DNA of 64,000 bases. Source: Octopus vulgaris (lineage: Eukaryota). This document shows positions 685 to 62,574 of the stretch, piece after piece. Below the pieces are notes generated by a model that was not told where the DNA came from, ran no database searches, and saw only the letters and a program-made list of their open reading frames with translations. Where the stretch lies: NCBI GenBank assembly GCA_951406725.2, contig OX597832.1, positions 68,882,001 through 68,946,000 on the forward strand, written 5' to 3'. How positions within the stretch are numbered: the first letter of the stretch is position 1; each line of letters begins with the position of its first letter. A program made the translations under genes and the position numbers.

Positions 685-767
685 CTGTTTCAACACACGA
701 CTTCACATAAAAAATCTTGCACAACAAATATTTAAACGTATATATATATATATATTCATATAAATAC

Positions 768-811
<44 letters not shown>

Positions 812-857
812 ATACATATACATATATATATATATATATACATATAAATATATATAC

Positions 858-3800
858 ATCATCATCATCATCATCATCATTTAACGTCCGTTTTCCGCGC
901 TAGCACGGGTTGGACGCTTCGACCGGGGTCTGGGGAGCCAGGCTCCAGTCTGATCTGGCAGTATTTCTACAGCTGGATGCCCTTCCTAACACCAACCACT
1001 CTGCGAGTGTAGTGGGTGCTTTTTACATGCCACCTGCACAGGTGCCAGAGGGGTCTGGCATCGGCCACGATTGGTTGGTGCTTTTTATGTTCCACCGGCA
1101 CAGAAGCCAGTCGAGGCGGTGCTGGCATCGGCCATGTTCGGATGGTGCTTTTTATGTGCCACCGGCACAGAAGCCAGTCGGGGCGGTGCTGGCATCGGCC
1201 ATGTTTGGATGGTGCTTTTTATGTGCCACCGGCACAGAAGCCATTCGAGGCGGGTTTGGCATCGGTCACGTTCGGATTGTGCTTTTTATGTGCCACCAGC
1301 ACAGAAGCCAGTTGAAGCGGCACTGGCAACGGCCACAGGTGCCAGAGGGGTCTGGCATCGGCCACGATCGGTTGGTGCTTTTTATGTGCCACCGGCACAG
1401 AAGCCAGTCGAGGCGGTGCTGGCATTGGCCACGTTCGGATGGTGCTTTTTATGTGCCACCGGCACAGAAGCCATTCGAGGCGGGGTTGGCATCGGTCACG
1501 TTCGGATGGTGCTTTTTATGTGCCACTGGCACAGAAGCCAGTCGAGGCTGCACTGGCAACGGCCACGTTTGGATGGTGCTTTTTATGTGCCACTGGCACA
1601 GGTATCACAACTACTGTTTCCATTGATATTTGGTTCGATGTTCATGTACATGCACTTGACTCAACAGGTCTCCTCAAGCACAGCGAGATGTTCTGGGATC
1701 CAAGGTACTTTGAATGGGCAGGGGGTATGCGGAACTGGTGCCGGAAGTATCCCAGGTCTTAGTAGTCACAGCACATCTCCAGAGATCTCGGTCCTTCGCC
1801 ATTGCCTCAGTGAGGCCCAACACTCTGAGGTCATGCTTGACTAGCTCATCCCATGTCTTCCTGGGTCTACCTCTCCTCCTGATTCCTTCAACTGTTTGGG
1901 AGTGGCACTTCTTCACACATCTCTCCTCATCCATCCGCAGTACATGACCATACCATCGCAAGCGTCGCTCTTGCACACCGCATCTGATGCTTCTTATGCC
2001 TAGCATTTCTCTCAGGGTGCTTACACTCTGTCGTGCATTCACACTGACATTACACATCCAGCGGATCATGATAGCTTCATTTCTTTCAAGTCTACGCATG
2101 TCCTCTGCAGTCACAGCCCATGTTTCACTGCCGTGAAGCATGGCAGTTTGCACACATGCATCATACAATCTACCTTTCACTCTGAGTGAGAGACCCTTTG
2201 TCGCCAGTAGGGGTAGGAGCTTTCTAAACTATGCCCAGGCTATTCATGTTCTAGTGGTGACACTCTCTGAGCATCAACCCCCACTACTAACTTGGTCACC
2301 CAGGTAGCGGAAACTATCAACTACTTCTAGTTTCTACCCCTGGAGTGTGATGGAATCTGTTTTCTGAGTGTCTGTGGTGTCTATTGTCCCTGTGCATCTG
2401 CCGCACATGAAAGCTATCTTATCAGTTAATTTCCTTTTGATGTTGCTGCACCTCTTATACGTCCATAGCTTACACTGGGTGCATCTTATGGAGTTTCTAC
2501 CTACACCTTTCCTACAGCTCGAGCAGGGCCACCTGCCCGATGGGGTGTGTGCTGAGTTCACCTTTCTGCATACTATAACTTTGGTCTTCGCTACATTTAC
2601 TCTAAGGCCCTTTGATTCCACACCCGGAATTTCTTTTTTAGTTCCGGTAGTGATTCTGCTATGAGGGCCAGGTCATCAGCATAGAGGAGCTCCCAGGGGC
2701 AACCTGTTTTGAATTCCTCTGTTATTGCCTGGAGGACTATGATGAATAAAAGGGGACTGAGGGCTGAGCCCTGGTGTACACCTACTTCTACCCGGAATTC
2801 TTCACTATATTCGTTGCCAATCCTAACCTTGCTGACAGCCTCTCTGTATAGAGCCTGTACAGCCCTTATTAGCCATTCGTCAATCAACAGTTTCCGCATC
2901 GACCACCAGATAAGGGATCGGGGAACCCTGTCAAAGGCTTTCTCCAAGTTCACAAAAGCTATGTAGAGGGGTTTATCTTTAGCTAGGTACTTCTCCTGCA
3001 GTTGTCGGACCAGGAATATAGCATCAGTGGTGCTTCTACCTGGTACAAAACCGAACTGCATCTCATCTAAGCAAATTCTCTCCCTAATGAGATGGGTTAT
3101 GACCCTCTCTGTGGCCTTCATCACCTGATCCAACAGTTTAATACCCCTGTAGTTATTTCTATCTAGAGCATCACCCTTACCCTTGTAGCAGTTGACTATG
3201 GTGCTGCTACGCCAGTCATTGGGTATGACTCCATTATGAACTACCTGGTTAACAATACGGGTGACTAGGCCATAGCCCTCATAACCAACTGTTTTAAGCA
3301 TCTCAGCAGTGATACCTGATGGGCCGGGGGCTTTACTTGGTTTCATATCCTTAATTGCCTTAACTACAAGGGAGCTGTCTATTTGGATAGCTGGTCCCTC
3401 TACTGGGTCAACATTTGGCAGGCTCTCCTCCTCCCATTCATTCTCCACATTCAGCAGTCTTTCATAATGGCTTCTCCAAGCCTCTTTCTTTTCACCAACA
3501 TTAAAGGCAAGTGCCCCATCATCCATGCGGCCACATTTCTCTCCTGTAACATCACTATTTTCTCTCACACACTGTCTAGCAATACGAAATACTTCAGTTC
3601 TTTGGTCCTCACGTCACTGGACATTGGCAAACTTATTCTTTTCTGCTATATCTTTGGCTATGTATACCTGCCACCCGGCCTCCCTTTTGGCTACTTGGTA
3701 CGGTTCCCTGCTACCCCCATCCCTCCAGGCTCTCCAGGCCTGTTTCTTAGAACTAATGGCTTTGTCTACTGCACTATTCCACCACCACGTAACTCTAGGT

Positions 3801-8641: not shown

Positions 8642-9143
8642 TCATCATCATCATCGTTTAACGTCCGCTTTCCATGCTAGCATGGGTTGGATGGTTCAAC
8701 TGGGGTCTGGCAAGCCTGAAGGCTGCGCCAGGCCAGTCAGATCTGGCAGTGTTTCTACAGCCGGATGCCCTTCCTAATGCCAACCACTCCGAGAGTGTAG
8801 TGGGTGATTTTATGTGCCACCAACACAGGTGCCAGACGAGGCTGGCAGACGGCCACGCTCGGATGGTGTTTTTTATGTGCCACCAACACAGGTGCCAGAC
8901 GAGGCTGGCAGACGGCCACGCTCGGATGGTGTTTTTATGTGCCACCGACACAGGTGCCAGACGAGGCTGGCAGACGGCCATGCTCAGATGGTGTTTTATG
9001 TGTCACCGACACAGGTGCCAGACGAGGCTGGCAGACGGCCACGCTCGGATGGTGTTTTCTTATGTGTCAACGACACAGGTGCCAGACGAGGCTGGCGAAC
9101 GGCCACGCTCGGATGGTGTTTGTTACGTGCCCTCAGCACGGCG

Positions 9144-12726: not shown

Positions 12727-14933
12727 GTTTAACGTCCGTTCTCCATGCTAGTATGGGTTGGACGGTTCAACTGGGGATCTGGGAAGCCAGGAGGCTGCAC
12801 CAGGCTCCAGTCTTATCTGGCAGTGTTTCTACAGCTAGATGCCCTTCCTAACGTCAACCACTCCGTGAGTGTAGTGGGTGCTTTTTAAGTGCCACCTGCA
12901 CAGGTGCCAGGCGAGGCTGGCAACGGCCACGGTCGGAATGGTGCATTTTACGTGCCACCGGCACAGAAGCCAGTCGAGGCCGCGCTGGCATTGGCCATGA
13001 TTCGGATAGTGGTTTTTACGTACCACCAGTCCAGGGGTCCTGGCAACTGCCGGGTGCCAGTCATAGGATTGGTTCAATTTCGATTCCGATTTCAATTTCA
13101 CTTGCCCCAACAGGTCTTCATAAGCAGAGAAGGGGGGTTGGCATGGGTGCCTGTCGTCGGATGAGGTTCGATTTCGACTACGCTTGCCTCAACAGGTCTT
13201 TGTGTGTCCAAGGGAGGAAAGACATGCATAAGTGGGCTGGACTCACTTGTCCTGCCTGATCTTCTCCCGTACAGCATATTTCCAAAGGTCTCGGTCGCTG
13301 GTCATTGCCTAAGTGATGCCTAAAGTTCAATGGTCGTGCTTCACCACCTCGTCCTAGGTTTTCCTGGGTCTACCTCTTCCACGGGTTCCCTCAACTGCTA
13401 GGGATTGGCACTTTTTCACACACCTATCTTCATCCATTCTCACCACATGACCATACCAACGCAATCGTCTCTCTTGCACACCACAGCTGATGCTTCTTAG
13501 GTCCAACATTTCTCTCAAGGTAATAACACTCTGTCGAGTATGCACACTGACATTACACATCCGTCGGAGCATACTGGTTTCATTCCTCGCGAGCTTACGC
13601 ATGTCCTCAGCAGTCATGGCCCATGTCTCACTGCCATGTAGCATGGCTGTTCGTACACATGCATCATACAGTCTGCCTTTTATTCTGAGCAAGAGGCCTT
13701 TAGTCACCAGCAGAGGTAAGAGCTCCCTGAACTTTGCCCAGGCTATTCTTACTCTAGCAGTTACACTTTCAGCACCCCCACCCCCACTACTGACTTGGTC
13801 ACCTAGATAACGGAAGCTATCAACTACTTCTAGTTTTTCCCCCTGGAAGGTGACGGAAGTTGTTTTCTGCAGATTTTCAGAGTTTATTGCTCCTGTCTTC
13901 CCAGTTAGCCTTCCTTTGACATTGCTGCACCTCTTATATGTCCATAGCTTACACTGGGTACATCTTATAGTGTTTCTACCTACACCTTTTCTACAGATCG
14001 AGCAGGGCCATCTTCCTGAAGGCATTTGTGGATTGTCTACCTTCCTACTTATTAGTACTTTGGTTTTAGCTAGGTTGACTCTAAGGCCCCTCGATTCTAA
14101 TCCCTCCTTCCACACCTGGAACTTCTCCTCCAGTTCTGATAGTGACTCAGCAATTAGAGCAAGGTCGTCAGCATAGAGGAGCTCCCAGGGGCATCCTGTC
14201 TTGAATTCCTCTGTAATTGCCTGGAGGACTATGATAAATAGGAGGGGGCTGAGGACTAAACCCTGGTGGACCCCAACCTCTACCTTGAATTCTTCTGTGT
14301 ACATGTTGCCAACCCTAACCTTACTTACAGCATCCTTGTACATTGCTTGCACAGCTCTCACCAGCCATTCATCTATCCCTAGTTTCCTCATTGACCACCA
14401 GATAAGGGATCGGGGGACCCTGTCAAAGGCTTTCTCCATGTCAACGAAAGCCAGGTACAGGGGCTTATCTTTGGCTAGGTATTTCTTCTGCAGCTGTCTC
14501 ACCAGAAATATGGCATCAGTGGTGCTTTTCCCTGGCATGAAACCAAACTGCATCTTGTCCAAGTTGACTCTCTCCCTAATCAGTTGGGCTATGACCCTCT
14601 CCGTAACCTTCATTACCTGATCCAACAGCTTGATACCTCTGTAATTATTTGTATCTAGGGCATCTCCTTTACCTTTGTAGCAGTTGACTATTATGCTGCT
14701 ACACCAGTCATTTGGTATAACTCCTTCGTGTATCACCTGGTTAACTATACAGGTGACTAGGTTATAGCCGACACTGCCAGATATTTTGAGCATCTCTGCA
14801 GTAATTCCTGATGGGCCTGGGGCTTTCCCTGTCTTCATGCTTCTAATTGCCTTAACTACCAAAGAATTGTCAACTCGGATGGCTGGTCCCTCTGCTGGGT
14901 TGACATTCGGCAGACTCTCTTTATCCCATTCAT
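12699..14933 (-). mobile_element. 5'-truncated RTE LINE with an open 502-aa RT/C-terminal frame (13354..14862)
   Basis: RT motifs (LLYADD, GVHQG), Cys-rich insert, (ATG)n tail; candidate TSD TTTATAAT at 12691-12698 and 14934-14941. Confidence 0.93.
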
Positions 14934-14949
14934 TTTATAATAATAATAA

Positions 14950-17896: not shown

Positions 17897-18292
17897 TTAC
17901 TCTCTTTTACTCTCTTTTACTTGTTTCAGTCATTTGACTGTGGCCATGCTAGAGCACTGCCTTTAATCGAGCAACTTGACCCCGGGACTTATTCTTTTGT
18001 AAGCCCAGTACTTATTCTATTGGTCTCTTTTGCCAAACCGCTAAGTAACGGGGACATAAACACACCAGCATCGGTTGTCAAGCAATGCTAGGGGGACAAA
18101 CACAGATACACAAACACACACGCATATATATATACATATATACGATGGGCTTCTTTCAGTTTCCATCTACCAAATCCACTCACAAGGCTTTGGTCGGCCC
18201 AAGGCTATAGTAGAAGACACTTGCCCAAGGTGCCACGCAGTGGGACTGAACCCGGAACCATGTGGTTCCTGTGCCTATACAGCCACTCCTGC
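17897..18292 (-). mobile_element. SINE family A, full length
   Basis: Reverse complement of 8140-8529. Confidence 0.85.
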
Positions 18293-33790: not shown

Positions 33791-34643
33791 TATTTCCTTT
33801 CAAATGTTCTCCCCATTATTGAAACCAACCTAAACTCATACAACTTAAAGCCACAAAAAATAGTCCGTGACTTATAGTTGATGTAAAAATTCCCTATTCA
33901 AAATATATTATATAAATTTTAATATAAATAAATTAGTCACATGTATGAACGGTTAAATGTTTTCAGTATAAATAATATACTTTTCAGCTGCAGTCGTTTT
34001 ATATTCTTGATACAATCAGGCAATAATTATTTTCTCTAATGAGTTTGCATATGTATATGTTTGTGTAGATGTGTGTGATTGTAATAATTATTTTTAACAA
34101 AACAGATAGAATATAGATGATAATTCAAATTAAAACACTTGTCAATGTTATCTAGTTTCCTTGTATACACACACACATATATTCACACAGAGTTGAAACA
34201 CTTTTGAAATGCGTCCCTTCATTTGGGATCACCAGCACTTTATTATCTCCCTTCCTTTCAACCTCTTCTTTCAAACCTTTTTTTCTAATCATATGCCATG
34301 CTTGACCACTAGATCTACAAGTTTTGTTTTCATTTTCTCTCTGTTTATTTTCTCTTATTTCTTTCTGTTGAAGTACATAACCTCGAAATGTAAGAGACTT
34401 TTCATTTACCTGAGCATCAAATTAATACACCTGTTTGTTATTCATGCATCTGTCTTCATCTTTTGCTTTTCTATAAATTTCAACTATATATATATTTATA
34501 TGTGTGTGTGTGTATGTGTATGTATACATACATACATATATATATACAAACACATATATAAGTGTGTATGAGTGAGTGTGTGTGTATATACATATATATA
34601 TATGTATATGTATATATATGTGTGTGCATATATATATATATAT

Positions 34644-34699
<56 letters not shown>

Positions 34700-34730
34700 G
34701 TGTGTGTGTATGTGTATATATATATATATC

Positions 34731-35114
34731 TTTACACTTTTACTTGTTTCAGTCATTTGACTGCGGCCATGCTGGAGCACCGCTTTTAATCGAGCAACTG
34801 GACCCCGGGACTTATTCTTTTGTAAGCCCAGTACTTATTCTATCGGTCTCTTTTGCCGAACTGCTAAGTAACGGGAACTTAAACACACCAGCATCAGTTG
34901 TCAAGCAATGCTAGGGGGACAAACACAGACACAAAAACACACACACGCATACATATATACGACGGGCTTCTTTTAGTTTCCGTCTACCAAATCCACTCAC
35001 AAGGCTTTGGATGCCCGAGGCTATAGTAGAAAACACTTGCCCAAGGTGCCACGCAGTGGGATTGAACCCAGAACCATGTGGTTGGTAAACAAGCTACTTA
35101 CCACACAGCCACTC
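34731..35114 (-). mobile_element. SINE family A, near full length
   Basis: Reverse complement of 8140-8529. Confidence 0.85.
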
Positions 35115-56297: not shown

Positions 56298-56959
56298 TGA
56301 AAAAAATTTTACATTATTCAACCATAATTAACATTCTGGTTGCCTACATATTATAAAACATAATAACTCTTGAGTCTATAAAATTCAGATAAAGTATACT
56401 TATGTCAACAAAAGTTAGTTTCCACAACATCTGTTTAATGGCAATTTGTGTGTGTGTGTGTGTGTGAGCGAAACAGCCTAACTGATAAGTGCATGGCCCA
56501 TTGGTTAGAGGGTAGCATTGACGATTGTGAGATCATGGTTTTAGTTCACAGACCAAGTGGTGCATTGTTCTTATGAACAAACTACTGCCTTTCATGTCCC
56601 TCCACAATCATTTCGACATCTACGAGATATGTCGACTTGACTACAAACATTTATTCATCTATAAACAGTATAGATATGTTCATTATATCACAAGTTGACA
56701 GTCAACTCTGACTTTTGCCCAAAGCTGGGCTGTTGATGACTGTAGGGTAGATGGGCTACTTTTTATATAAGGGTAGACTGACCTGATATGGGTGTGTGTG
56801 GGGGTGATAATTTAAAGATGGAAGATTTAACTTTTGTTCAAAATTTCTCTCTGCAATGAATCTTTTTTTCATCCTGTGCATGTGCAACTTGGCTCTCACT
56901 GTGTGGGTGGCCGGGTGTCAGCCATTGTCCCTTGGTCATTGTGTACCCTTCAGTATGTC

Positions 56960-57446
56960 CACATGCTAACCATCAAAGAATGTACGTTCTTAGTTGCATG
57001 GGTGTTTCAAGCTGGAAACAAATACACAGATACTGTGAAACAGAAGTTCAGTGAAACTTTTCCAAATACTGTTATTCCACATTGTGACAATGTGCAGGAT
57101 GTGATAAGAAAATTTAGAAACACAGGCTCAGCAAGAAGTGGTAGGCCTACTGTTCTTTCAGATGAAACACTCTCCAATATTTCTCATAATCTATTGGCAA
57201 GCCCATCGAAGTCCTTACGCAAATTGTCACAGGAAATGGAAATTAGCCTAGGAAGTGCTCACATCGCAGTAAAAAAGAAATTAAATTTTATGTATTGAAA
57301 ATGGAGGATGACACTTTCAACACATCTTCTGGAGTTTTTTAAAGTCTTGTAAAGTCTAATATATTCTTTTGTAGTCTTATACCATCTTATAAATATTTAT
57401 TTTGCAATAAAATGCTTACTGCAGAGAGACATTTTGAACACCCTGC
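56960..57446 (+). mobile_element. Tc1/mariner-superfamily relic (N-terminal HTH region, internally deleted)
   Basis: ORF 56834..57298 contains F..TFPNT..P....V..VIRKFRNTGS.RSGRP...SPSKSLRKLSQE; TIR-like end GACATTTTGAACACCCTG. Confidence 0.7.
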
Positions 57447-58162
57447 ATTAGATGTGCAAACAGCCATTAATCAAAACTTTTGATTCAAATTACTAACACC
57501 CATGAGACTGCACCAACCCTGCACACAAAAGTCATGATTAAGGAAAATAATTACGTTTAATTATTTATAACTGCATCTGTAAATTTATTTAAATGTATTA
57601 CATAAGTGTATGAAGAATGTATCCTGAGTTAAGGTGTTCATGCAGGATTTTGTTTATGTATGGATTTACATGATATGTGCATGTGCGAGAGTGTATCCAC
57701 AGATATAAATATGTGTGTGTGTGAGAGTGTGTGTATAGACACATGTCCACATATACATACACACACACATATATAGAGAGAGAAAGATGGATGTGTCTGT
57801 GTAGATGGAAGGAGGAAAACCATTGCAAAAGCAACCTTACTCAGAAAGGATTGTATTTTGAAGAAATTGATGGAGATCTTGGCTCAAAGCATTGAGGTTC
57901 ATAGTTTTCTCTTTGACCTGACTGATGTTTCTGCAACAAGTATCTACTTGGGTTGACATTGTCTCTCATCAGAACCCAATGAAAAATTTCAGTAAAAGAC
58001 TCCTGTTAACAACATTCAAATGCATTTCTCTATTAAAAGCCATTTGATCCCATCTCCCTGACTTTAAAATAATTCTATACATCGAAGAGGCCAGGGAACA
58101 GAAGAAAGAAGACATGCACCCAATACCAGAGCTGAAGACACTTCCGAAAGGTGGGGGCCCTG

Positions 58163-58225
58163 CCACGTCAAAACGGTAGAGGAGTAGGGGCTAAAACCGG
58201 ACGTGGTTCCTTCTGATGATGTCTT
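58163..58225 (+). ncRNA. Candidate non-circularly permuted hammerhead-like fold
   Basis: CCACGTC-AAAA-CGGT-A^-GAGGAG-TA-GGGGCT-AAAA-CCG-GACGTGG-TTCCTT-CTGATGA-TGTCTT. All three stems can pair, but the GAAA box reads AAAA. Confidence 0.4.
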
Positions 58226-61200
58226 GAGCTAACTGGATCCTATAAAGGAGCTGTTGTGGTAGCAGACCACGAAACACGGTTGTAATTGCTCAGATACTGA
58301 CTGCAGGGAAAGACTTGCTAACAATTCAGAAAGAGGGATGACAAAGCGGAGAGACGCTTGACAGTACGACAGCGTAACGAAGGATCAAATGGGCTGGCAG
58401 CCTGATCTGGGGAAAAATTGCAACGAAAAACATGGGTAATCATGGCCCCATGATCCCAGACCACGGGGGGAGAATAAAGGATCAAATAGGGCGGAAAAAA
58501 ACGAAATGGACTTGGACCGGAAATGGACAATGAGAAAGGAAACGGTATAGGGATGGTAGATGAGGAGTTCAGCTGCTGCGGAAAAGTGCTTGCTAGTTAC
58601 ATCGGGCTGAGAATCCACCAGGGGAAGGTATGTCAGAAGAAAGTAATTCAACAACGCGGGTTGATAAACCATAAGACGTGGCCAGAACCCCCTGGAAAAT
58701 AACCATAGCGAGGTTCATTCCACAGTTGAATTGGAACAGTCAAAAAGACTGATAGGCGTGAAGAGAACAAAGGTTAAGTGGCCGAAAGCAAATGACGCAG
58801 CGAAAATTTGACGACGAGGTAGCAAGAATGACCACCAAATCCAAAGGCGACGACGAACAAAAGCTCGAAAACCTGTCTAATACAATCTACCAGGAGGGAG
58901 AAAAAAGATTTGGACTGGAAACAACAGGGAAGGTAGATTCAATGGCAAAGAACAGACCATCGAGGAGAGAAAGATGGATCGCAAAGATTCGAGAAGAGAA
59001 GAAAAAACTCAGAACAACAGGGAGGGATGCAAAGGAGGAGGAAAGAGAAGAGATATATGAAGAGATAAAAAAAGAGGCATCGAGATCTGCTAAGAAAACA
59101 AAGAAGGAGGAGCAGAAGAAAGGAGAGAGAAAAAAACTATCGTAGCTTTGTGAACAATCCTTATCAATATGCGAAACATCTATTTACGGAAAGTAAAAGC
59201 GGAAAATTGGATTGCATGAAAGAAGAGCTCGAACAACATCTGAAAGAGACATACAGCGACTCGGACTGAAATGCACGGACTGAAGAAACCATCTGAACCA
59301 AGAGTACCATTTGATTTGGGCGACATCAAACGGAAAGAAATGGATGAGTTCATAAGGAAAGCAAGAGCAAAAAGTGCACCAAGGAACGATGGAGTGAGCT
59401 ACAAGGTATATAAATATTGCCCAAAATTATGCTTGCAGCTGCTTGCACTGATAAAGAAATGCAGAAGAAGAAAGATGTAGCAGAGCGATGGTGTATAGCC
59501 GAAGGTATCTATCTACCTAAAGAAAAAGAGGCAAAAACATTAGGTCAATTTAGACCAATTTCACTACTAAATACGGACGGGAAAATCATGTTTGGAATAA
59601 TTGCTAGACGAATCATAAGATTCGTACAGCATAACGGATATGTTAATGAAGCAATCCAAAAAGCAGGAATCCCCGGAATCCATGGGTGCATAGAACACGC
59701 ATTTTCCATCTGGGAAGCCATCACCTGTGCAAAACAAATGAATAAAAACCTGTATATTGTTTGGCTAGATCTTGCCAATGCTTATGGATCTGTTCCGCAC
59801 ACAATAGTAAAAACAGCGATGGACTTCTTTTGGATTCCAAAAGATGTTCAACAAATGCTCATGTCGTACTACGACAACCTGAGGAGGAGATTTACAGCAG
59901 GAAAGTTCACAACGGAGTGGCAATGGCTTGAAATAGGTATTGCAGCTGGATGCACGATATCAGTCATCTTATTCGTGCTAGTCATGGAAATGCTACTCAG
60001 ATCTACAAACTGTGAGAAAGCTGTTACAAAGACACCATTAAGGGCTTTTATGGACAACGTAACTATATTATCGGAAAGTACAGAAGCAGCAGAGGGAACG
60101 ATAGAGCTGTTGCATGAACTGATAGGATGGGCAAGGATGAAATTCAAAGCCAAAATATCTCGAAGTATGGCTTTCGTGAAAGGAAGGCAAGAAGAAGTGA
60201 AATTCAGGATAGGAAGTGAAAACATACCAACGGTGAAAGAACAACTAGTAAAGAGTCTCGGCAGATGGTATAGAGATATATTAAATGATAAGAAGCAAGG
60301 GAAAGAAACACACGAGTTAATAGAACAAGGATTAAAGGCAATTGACAGAACAACGCTGCCAGGAAAATTCAAGTGTTGGATACTGCAATTTGGGCTGTAC
60401 CCAAGAATATTGTGGCCATTGCAAATGTACGAAATAGCCTCGAGTAGAGTAGAAAGGATGGAACAAAGATGCAGTGTGTTTATCAGAAAATGACTTGGTC
60501 TGCCGAAACCATTGAATACAACTGCACTATATGGAAAACCCATGCTGCAACTACCAATAGCATCAATCGCCGAAGAATATAAGGCAGGAAAGGCAAGGAC
60601 AGAATGATGCTAAGGTATTCAAAACATCAGAGCATCCGGGAAAACCCTCCAAAGGTACGAACAGGGAGGAAATGGAAGGCGGAAGAGGCAGTAAACAGGG
60701 TGATCGGAAAACTAAGGCACGCAGATATAGTTGGAGCGACACAAGAAGTTAGAACCGGCCTAGGGTCGCAAAATTTCAGGCCATTTTGCGAGAGCAGTGT
60801 AAAAGAGATGAAAGAGGCAGTGGTATACGAAGTGAGAAAGGAGGAAGAAGAAAAAGGCAAAATATACATTTGGTGCAATGCAGTCAACAGGGGCAGTGCC
60901 TGAGATTGGAGGAATATACGATCAACCGCAGAATATCATGGAAGGAACTTTGGGCTTGGGAACAAGCAAGAACATCCTTCCTGATCAAGTCTACCTTCGA
61001 CATTCTACCCTCACCGGCAAACTTAGTGCGGTGGAACATAAAAACAACTAAAGGTGTGTAGATACGGAGAGAAAGCGACGGTTAGACATGTTCTGTCAAG
61101 TTGCAGACTAGCACTTGAAAGATATACATGGCGGCATGATCAAGTCCTCGGCGTCATAAGCGCAGCACTCAAGGAGAAGATCGAGAGGTCCAATAGGGGA

Positions 61201-61834
61201 GAGTACCCAAAAGTAGAAAAGCACAGGAAAGTATACTTCCACAAGGAGGGAAAAAGGTTATAAAACCAGGACTACAAGTAAAGTATACGAGATAGACGGA
61301 AGATGGAAGGGATACTGGGAGGTGGCCATGGACTTGGAAAGACAAGTAATATTTCCACTAATAAAAACAACAAAAAGACTGGATTTAATTCTATGGAACA
61401 GAGACCGGAGAATGGGAATTTTACTAGAACTGACAGTACCTTGGGAAGAGAACATCGGCAATGCAGAGGAACAAAAGGAGGAGAGGTATGAAAAGCTAAT
61501 CGAAGAATGCAGAGAACAGGGATGGAATGTTGAATATTATCACCTGGCAGTGGGGGCTAGGAGCTTCATTGAAAATGACAATGCTTTTCAAAAGAAGATT
61601 TGTTTTTTCTAGCCCCGAGCTGCGTAAACAAATAAGGGGAGTACAGGAGGCGGTCGAAAAAGCCAGCTTCTATATATGGCTGAAGCGGGTAGACCGAAAA
61701 TGGCTTGAAAGTCATAAACACGCCGACGGGAAATAACATCATTAGGTGAGACAAGCTGACTGAATCAGCTTCGCCGACTGACAGATGGCGGTCGTTTAGA
61801 AAAAACGCGGGCTAAAACTATGTGCCTTCACTGG

Positions 61835-62187
61835 TCAGTTAAGGTGAGACAGTGTCACGTGACAACTTGCTGGGGCTGCCTGCTGGAGCCTTGCAGCAGG
61901 TATTTAAAGGGAAAAATTTGACAAGTCAGTCAGTCACCGGCTGACACTCACTGTAGATACATCGAAGAGGCCAGGGAACAGAAGAAAGAAGACATGCATG
62001 GTGTCTTCAGCTCTGGTGTTTGGTGCATGTCTTCTTTCTTCTGTTCCCTGGCCTCTTCGATGTATCGTCAGTGAGTGTCAGCTGGTGACTGACTGACTTG
62101 TCAAATTTTTCCCTTTAAATACCTGCTGCAAGGCTACAGCAGGCAGCCCCAGCAAGTTGTCACGTGACACTGTCTCACCTTAACTGA
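61835..62187. repeat. 164-bp-arm hairpin (61835-61998 / 62024-62187, 25-nt loop)
   Basis: Position i pairs with 124022-i; 4 mismatches counted. Confidence 0.95.
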
Positions 62188-62336
62188 TGATGTCTTGAGC
62201 TAACTGGATCCTATAAAGGAGCTGTTGTGGTAGCAGACCATGAAACACAGTTGTAATTCCTGGAAACATGCAAGAACTCCTTATCAAAATATACAAGTCA
62301 AAATAAATCTGAAAATATTCAAAATATATGTCTTAC

Positions 62337-62574
62337 ATTTGCTTTCATTTCAAGAACTTTCAAGTCATCTTGATTAGCTTTTAATTCTTGTTCCTTTCGA
62401 TATTTCAATGACCGTAACTCTCGGAGGTCTGCTTCGAGTTTCTCTTTGTCTTTCTCTTCTTTTAAAAGTAATATCTCAAGTTGGTCGGCAGCCTCTTTTG
62501 CTGACATTGATGATTTCGTAACAATGTCCAGCTTTTCTTTCATCTCCTCATATTTCTCAGTGAGCAACTCGTTT
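62337..62574 (-). CDS. CCDC39: Coiled-coil domain-containing protein 39, internal exon (NELLTEKYEEMKEKLDIVTKSSMSAKEAADQLEILLLKEEKDKEKLEADLRELRSLKYRKEQELKANQDDLKVLEMKAN)
   Basis: Acceptor tttcag| at 62575 and donor |gtaaga at 62336. The peptide aligns by eye with the vertebrate CCDC39 segment [38 protein letters not shown] (recalled from memory). It ends in phase 0, matching the next exon. Confidence 0.88.

Follow-up and report, generated by a model that had tools for sequence, protein, structure and literature searches.

Terminal redundancy and a hammerhead-like RNA fold in a decayed, likely Hero-clade LINE of Octopus vulgaris

Introduction

Long interspersed nuclear elements (LINEs) of the Hero clade, such as HERO-2_DR, HERO-1_BF and HEROTn, carry one open reading frame (ORF) that encodes a C2H2 finger, a reverse transcriptase (RT), a CCHC knuckle and a restriction-like endonuclease (RLE), and they leave 5'-truncated copies with a fixed 3' end. 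To our knowledge, the clade has no strict multicopy-gene target. We analyzed a window of 64,000 nucleotides from Octopus vulgaris (assembly GCA_951406725.2, contig OX597832.1, positions 68,882,001 to 68,946,000 of the forward strand), which harbors at 58077-62261 a decayed element of the same build, likely a Hero-clade LINE. The 3' tail of this element recurs in front of its ORF, and such terminal redundancy is a real, family-wide trait of these LINEs. Within the repeated tail, sequence comparison strongly supports a hammerhead-like RNA fold that is apparently undescribed.

Penelope-like elements and retrozymes, as portrayed in parts of the literature on them, resemble this layout in their partial head-to-tail tandem, in the hammerhead located in the repeated end and in the proposed copying of a circle for more than one unit. 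Sections of three accounts (PMC4209133, PMC6765202, bioRxiv 2026.07.22.740005) place hammerheads in the Penelope pseudo-long terminal repeats (pseudo-LTRs) and propose a circular template for the tandems. However, Penelope elements combine a telomerase-like RT with a GIY-YIG nuclease, and their hammerheads are of the minimal type I, whereas the element in the window has a LINE RT and an RLE, and retrozymes encode no protein, whereas this element has an RT-RLE ORF. LTR retrotransposons and retrozymes differ from the Hero relatives in having LTRs of fixed length and an integrase or no ORF, while the relatives show redundancy of variable length around an RT-RLE ORF. R2 shares the RLE, includes the closest solved relatives and has its RNA processed by a self-cleaving ribozyme. 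Unlike the element in the window, R2 has a ribozyme similar to that of hepatitis delta virus (HDV) only at its 5' end, is specific for ribosomal DNA and has no terminal repeat.

For hammerheads, the parts of Eckert et al. 2023 (PMC10085705) that deal with permutations hold by definition that blocks C, G and S cannot be interrupted, and they validate the SGC and CSG types. With the types as defined there, the fold described here shares the order S, G, helix I and CUGANGA, the short linker between helices I and II, a fourth helix joining the far sides of these two helices, and all core letters. In comparison with SGC, one strand of helix II and one strand of the interaction helix are moved to the 5' end, leaving the chain open between A9 and G10.1. 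As CUGANGA is not continuous with the 5' strand of helix II, the fold stands outside the six known or proposed permutations. The pseudoknot hammerhead, in the relevant portion of PMC11300833, keeps A9 and G10.1 joined. No description of a Hero ribozyme, of Hero terminal repeats or of such a hammerhead topology was found in the literature searched, outside of which lie most subscription papers and the Repbase reports.

Terminal redundancy of the element and its relatives

A sequence-only reading of this locus had described an RLE LINE with LTR-like split direct repeats (segments a and b, separated by x) and inverted termini that include a further segment, c. Repeat coordinates were checked by direct sequence comparison and by BLAST inside the window. 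Segment a (58077-58118) recurs at 61957-61998 with no difference in 42 positions, and in inverted form 58077-58141 matches the reverse complement of 62001-62065 at all but 2 of 65 positions. Segment b (58213-58287) matches 62184-62258 with 2 differences in 75, both CpG-type (58270 and 58278), and the match runs on to 58290/62261 with one further difference. The inverted arms formed by c and a together (61835-61998 versus 62024-62187) differ at 4 of 164 positions. Within-window E-values of the repeats range from 1e-15 to 1e-147, and BLAST found no further copy of the element elsewhere in the window.

The repeats are therefore real, but neither the split nor the inverted termini are element architecture, as none of 80 related loci, kept from 133 confirmed metagenome matches, has a long inverted repeat at its ends. 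Instead, a-x-b is one contiguous repeat, and c is the upstream part of the 3' untranslated region (UTR), with its left edge at 61835 being merely the end of the inversion. An inversion in the right-hand copy produces the split and inverted appearance. The original insert order was a-x-b, ORF, c-a-x-b, amounting to 1.05 units of a 3,880-nt monomer. The element is laid out as follows.

58070..58076, plus strand: left flank TAATTCT, similar to the element's last letters at 62254-62261 (a single case that may be chance)
58077..58287, plus strand: a-x-b, the 5' terminal direct repeat of 211 nt, which duplicates the 3' tail of the element itself (from sequence comparison; left flank junction in contigs of public runs X1, X2 and X4)
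58288..58445, plus strand: 5' UTR, opening with a TGAC...GGAAAGAC motif (from comparison with relatives)
58446..61736, plus strand, ends approximate: decayed single ORF with C2H2 finger, RT, CCHC knuckle and RLE (from comparison with the intact relative P0004)
61737..61956, plus strand: upstream 3' UTR including c, with promoter-like words that we take to be an E-box palindrome (61853-61864), a TATA-like word (61901-61908) and initiator (Inr)-like TCAGTC at 61926 and 61930
61957..61998, plus strand: a, the beginning of the repeat's 3' copy (from sequence comparison)
62001..62187, minus strand: inverted duplication of c-a-x', which replaces x, removes the ribozyme-like core from the 3' copy and has a CTGA microhomology at its right end (from sequence comparison; a related joint in X2 and X4)
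62184..62261, plus strand: b, the 3' end of the element, in agreement with the fixed family terminus (from contig loose ends)

Both flank junctions are spanned by contigs with no differences at a depth of 42-70 in three of four public runs (X1, X2 and X4, not X12, perhaps an RNA run), so the insertion ends are not an assembly artefact. Apart from the TAATTCT likeness in the left flank, no clean target-site duplication was found at the element ends.

Redundancy is not confined to this copy. Direct repeats flank the ORF in L005 (391 nt, 93%), L042 (265 nt, 93%), L021, L016, L035, L034, L019, L038 and other related loci, and six contigs (L005, L011, L021, L035, L042, L054) read contiguously from the ORF end through the UTR into an ORF start. 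The length of the 5' redundancy varies, from 31 nt in L038 and 37 nt in L019 (which has only 9 nt of flank) to 211 nt in the window. Families with 37-65% protein identity to P0004 share terminal redundancy, which is a family trait; an origin of a, b and c in an unrelated repeat is very improbable, as all three are the element's own UTR. Exact overlaps between contigs (55, 77 and 111 nt) probably stem from the assembler and indicate nothing beyond a graph that closes through the repeat. Since 5' truncation can only shorten the repeat, something would have to regenerate it.

Summed contig depth, which is not a copy number, amounts to 190,000-560,000 across 58006-58317, drops to 750-3,000 immediately past b and rises again toward the 3' end, as in a LINE of which many copies are 5'-truncated. 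Past 58287, loose ends accumulate in 71, 88 and 67 contigs with heterogeneous continuations, which fixes the family 3' end at the end of b; behind 62261 there are 34 in X1 and 34 in X4. Agreement among the flanks behind the 3' end is only about 0.4, matching the Hero trait of no strict multicopy-gene target. These loose ends begin with CC, a hint of a short target preference or of a slightly longer terminus. Additionally, a joint from 58287 to 58203 in X2 and X4 suggests that some copies have a tandem second b segment at the 3' end.

The assignment as an RLE LINE holds, given the single ORF with an RT followed by a CCHC knuckle and an RLE. Against P0004 the ORF falls into 9 high-scoring segment pairs (8 frame changes) with 5 in-frame stops. 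The RT domain matches PF00078 (E 6e-19), and the N-terminal C2H2 finger, the CCHC knuckle and the RLE were recognized by alignment. Among 432 longer homologues, those with names are from molluscs, lancelets and a sea urchin, and the nearest solved structures are R2 proteins (PDB 9nl3, 9dou and 8gh6; E 3e-32). In the portion of the alignment in PMC5678591 supplement 6 used for comparison, the RT motifs agree by eye with the Hero rows and not with those of R2, NeSL, Utopia, Dong or CRE. The element is thus likely a decayed copy of a Hero-clade LINE. The element matches L003 at 70% of DNA positions over the 5' UTR and ORF start.

A 3' promoter in c had also been suggested. The words behind this suggestion, TATTTAAA at 61901 and the palindrome TGTCACGTGACA at 61853, are present in this copy, but the relatives lend the suggestion no support: upstream of the fold, TATA-like words occur in 2 of 21 relatives and CACGTG in none of the 21.

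A hammerhead-like fold in the repeated tail

UTRs of the relatives share GAAA followed by CTGANGA. The proposed fold runs, from 5' to 3', through the 5' strand of helix II, an interaction strand, helix III with the U-H dinucleotide, helix I and a short linker; the chain then returns through the 3' strand of helix II, GAAA, helix III, the interaction strand, helix I and CUGANGA, often with a closing helix. The core letters are those of the hammerhead (CUGANGA, GAAA, UH and G10.1-C11.1) in a pseudoknotted arrangement, and because the 5' strand of helix II comes from upstream, the backbone is open between A9 and G10.1. In the window, the fold was recovered in the 5' repeat.

58130..58230, plus strand: hammerhead-like pseudoknotted RNA
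58130-58140/58220-58230, plus strand: closing helix P0
58156-58161/58187-58192, plus strand: helix II
58163-58169/58200-58206, plus strand: I-II interaction helix
58174-58177/58196-58199, plus strand: helix III
after A58178, plus strand: predicted cut
58179-58183/58208-58212, plus strand: helix I
58213-58219, plus strand: CUGAUGA

The window copy has one core change, G12 (58193) to A, and is predicted to be inactive on this basis; L016, L021 and L043 are examples of relatives in which the motif is intact. CG at 58192-58193 had been predicted for the family beforehand, and a single contig joint row reads CGAAAC after 58191. In most relatives examined, the TGAC motif that opens the 5' UTR lies 64-110 nt past C3 of the fold.

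Support for the fold comes from counts and from covariation. A descriptor limited to the core and helices I and III gave 25 matches in the 80 loci, all in sense orientation and 23 of them outside the ORF, as against 0-1 match per set in 10 sets of shuffles. Among 29 GAAA..CTGANGA anchors in UTRs (near-identical loci counted separately), helices I and III form in 20, the upstream helix II as well in 19, and all four helices in 17. The corresponding numbers for 36 anchors inside ORFs are 2, 0 and 0, and four helices form in 2 of 8700 shuffles. When only the upstream part was shuffled, helix II formed in 36% and helix II with the interaction helix in 12%, compared with the observed 19/20 and 17/20.

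Covariation was assessed in a structure-free MAFFT alignment of 14 hand-picked instances chosen for similar linker lengths. When every pair of columns was scanned blind, helices II, III and I came out and nothing else. Their positions are 92.3% paired, both partners have changed in 10 of the 14 pairs, and the covariation is 0.655; none of 500 shuffles reached this, and slid controls stayed at or below 0.163. The interaction helix is out of register in this alignment and was not counted there. At the unconstrained junction of helices III and I, a 2-nt U-H is found in 20 of 24 instances (UA 8, UC 7, UU 5, UG none), which is the hammerhead cleavage rule, and N7 is free to vary among the relatives. 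P0 exceeds shuffles (p<=0.05) in 11 of 27 instances and is thus common but not universal, in a count for which several automatic strand picks were wrong (L021, L036, L053, L068, L073, L076, L077).

Of the ribozyme processing proposed by the sequence-only reading, the presence of a ribozyme-like structure in the repeat stands, with a conserved core and covarying helices; the processing itself belongs to the mechanism weighed below. Conventional candidates were rejected. A canonical type I hammerhead in b (CUGAUGA..CGAAAC) does not form helices I and II, and a canonical SGC helix II fails in register (0/14 at 10.1-11.1), forming at none of the 29 UTR anchors and none of the 36 ORF anchors. Six segments were also folded for minimum energy, and none gave a significant result (z 0.48 to -1.95). 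Searches with Rfam yielded no ribozyme: the window has just miRNA and snoRNA matches below threshold, mostly on the fold-back hairpin and a microsatellite, and for the relatives there were 2 chance-level matches in a set of 17 loci and none in a set of 18.

In 22 of 36 related loci the fold is found no more than 700 nt from the ORF end, on its 3' side, a count in which 7 motif positions were added by hand and one ORF-internal match (L060) was dropped. It is spread over most of the tree and missing in one subclade and most deep branches. On the 5' side of the ORF it is present in 9 of 21 loci with enough upstream sequence; the other 12 have no counted motif there, 2 of them having a variant core and several being apparently 5'-truncated. 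In a distant branch, the stretch separating helices I and II is, by eye, longer by 25-30 nt in L076:2690-2795 and L077:4320-4430.

In viral contigs, the same anchor letters formed the helices in 0 of 44 cases and no relatives of the element were found; prokaryote genomes gave no matches to b. One distant RLE LINE-like contig from prokaryote genomes, L081 (JBNKJW010000171.1), lies in a Bacteroidales metagenome-assembled genome and is probably eukaryotic contamination.

Inversion in the right-hand repeat

The CTGA microhomology at the junction of inverted c with b is present as first noticed, and a template switch replacing x, as suggested then, is the best reading of the inversion. A fold-back joint from 58153 to 62000 on opposite strands was found at a depth of 86 in 2 contigs of X2 and of 148 in 3 contigs of X4, near single-copy depth in comparison with about 1e5 for the family. 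We infer that it represents the same inversion event with 12 more nt of x, giving a second 4-nt microhomology, and more than one locus or allele may carry it. No listed contig of the public runs spans the exact junctions of the inversion in the window, an absence that proves nothing. The inversion would then be a rare double template switch at 4-nt microhomologies that happened at roughly the time of insertion, given a divergence of 4/164 between the arms and 4/140 between the repeats. Its rarity follows from the near single-copy joint depth and the lack of long inverted end repeats in all 80 relatives, and for the same reasons the likeness to DIRS/Ngaro elements, in which inverted or split repeats are a family trait, fails. 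The inversion is incidental and separate from the family-wide redundancy.

Discussion

Cleavage of the hammerhead-like tail in both repeats, followed by circle formation and reverse transcription over more than one turn, is a reading of these sequences that we hold to be evenly balanced between right and wrong. In this mechanism, a read-through RNA would be cut in both repeats by the self-cleaving fold, with catalysis occurring despite the A9/G10.1 break. The 3,880-nt monomer would be ligated into a circle of about 3.9 kb, and target-primed reverse transcription would begin internally, at a set position some 110-135 nt beyond the cut, and make a little over one full turn, crossing the sealed junction and rebuilding a variable 5' repeat in each generation. 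The fuller proposition, that Hero LINEs replicate via circular RNA with a hammerhead of new topology (a four-strand core with the backbone broken between A9 and G10.1) and have come by convergence, using unrelated enzymes, to the pseudo-LTR strategy of Penelope, is tentative, and we place it slightly below an even chance.

In the window, L017 and L019, the 3' ends of genomic copies fall some 110-135 nt beyond the predicted cut; copies span this site at both ends in the window and at the 3' end in L017 and L019. Two copies, in the window and in L055, extend upstream of it, the 5' repeat of L055 beginning about 65 nt before the cut. The copied RNA thus spans the site. If the ribozyme is active, both repeats would be cut, and a resealed circle, or partial cleavage combined with a jump, would be needed.

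Several observations weigh against this mechanism. The A9/G10.1 break is without precedent in the literature consulted, and the C block is treated as uninterruptible in the pertinent part of Eckert et al. 2023 (PMC10085705). Helix II forms in 36% of upstream-only shuffles, so any one case carries little weight. Near the ORF end, 14 of the 36 loci (2 with a variant core) gave no fold; they include the whole subclade of L008, L012/13, L050 and L072, and in the loci scanned Rfam put no other ribozyme there. Core variants occur in L035:1555-1630, L038 and L053-L055, with changes within CUGANGA but the helices kept in L035, L038, L053 and L055. Permuted or exactly overlapping contigs, like those with 55, 77 and 111 nt, can arise from assembly graphs crossing any repeat. 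Finally, the window copy lacks G12 and starts 25-29 nt short of the TATA/Inr-like start site in c; with a dead core and a start just short of such a site, a linear uncleaved RNA fits equally well. As for the subclade, L050, L008, L012 and L072 may use another structured RNA, and in L050 (2657-2900), where no fold lies near the ORF end, the 3' UTR nevertheless continues into a 5' UTR-like stretch.

A linear RNA could also yield the redundancy if the RT copies one RNA, then jumps to the 3' end of that RNA or of a different one and leaves a truncated second copy upstream, with the fold being a non-cleaving, perhaps hammerhead-derived, docking structure for the Hero protein. R2 RT is able to synthesize across non-continuous templates, the fold keeps a more or less constant distance from the 3' end, the part to which LINE proteins bind, the site is left uncut in genomic copies, and a b-to-b joint is present in X2 and X4. 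However, jumping leaves unexplained the hammerhead-specific pattern of a free N7, an H that is never G (20/20 U-H) and a G10.1-C11.1 pair kept by a strand from elsewhere, and the junction of b with the 5' UTR is homologous between distinct families (window, L003, L011) rather than ragged. We consider this explanation, the main rival, unlikely, though not far-fetched.

Alternatively, an active but slow or regulated ribozyme could act on linear RNA with no circle, the upstream copy trimming the 5' end of a read-through transcript in the manner of the R2 HDV-like ribozyme, the 3' copy often remaining uncut, and a homology-guided RT jump between the repeats rebuilding the redundancy. Release of LINEs from co-transcripts by ribozymes is established, as set out in part of PMC6765202, and rearranged hammerheads cleave slowly (0.004-0.19 per min). 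Nevertheless, no 5'-end pile-up at 58179 is seen among the 24 loose-end rows listed of 1853, a comparison of low power, and the copies in the window and L055 reach upstream of the cut; we regard this account as improbable. A one-off tandem insertion, an unrelated repeat, a DIRS/Ngaro-like design or an assembly artefact is largely refuted and very improbable: no read or contig was shown to cross the whole locus or the exact inversion junctions, but three runs reproduce both flank junctions, the repeated segments are the element's own UTR and are redundant across divergent families, and neither a tyrosine recombinase, as in DIRS/Ngaro elements, among the ORF pieces scanned nor terminal inversion in the 80 relatives was found.

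If the fold cleaves, a hammerhead architecture outside the six permutations thought possible would be widespread in eukaryotic repeat DNA. If the circular mechanism is true, a LINE clade would be able to keep terminal repeats and be copied from a circle, and the circular-template model of Penelope-type tandems would become testable in a second, unrelated system. RLE elements are under development for gene insertion, and Hero relics occur in vertebrate genomes including human, according to a section of PMC9004415.

Surroundings of the insertion

Beside the insertion, 62340-62570 on the minus strand is a probable exon of a coiled-coil host gene, with a weak match to CCDC39 (E 0.063), and the element may lie in an intron of this gene, on the opposite strand. 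On the other side, 56831-57298 on the plus strand holds a 155-residue frame with a DUF4817 helix-turn-helix (E 5e-5), presumably a Tc1/mariner-type transposase remnant. A large inverted repeat at 69-844 (a 779-nt self-match at 87%) is possibly a miniature inverted-repeat transposable element or a fold-back element. Minisatellite-like arrays and several dispersed repeat families of 350-1700 nt are also present in the window (1012-1601 and 8800-9140; 1768-3442 versus 13271-14934; 17913-18267 and 34585-35114).

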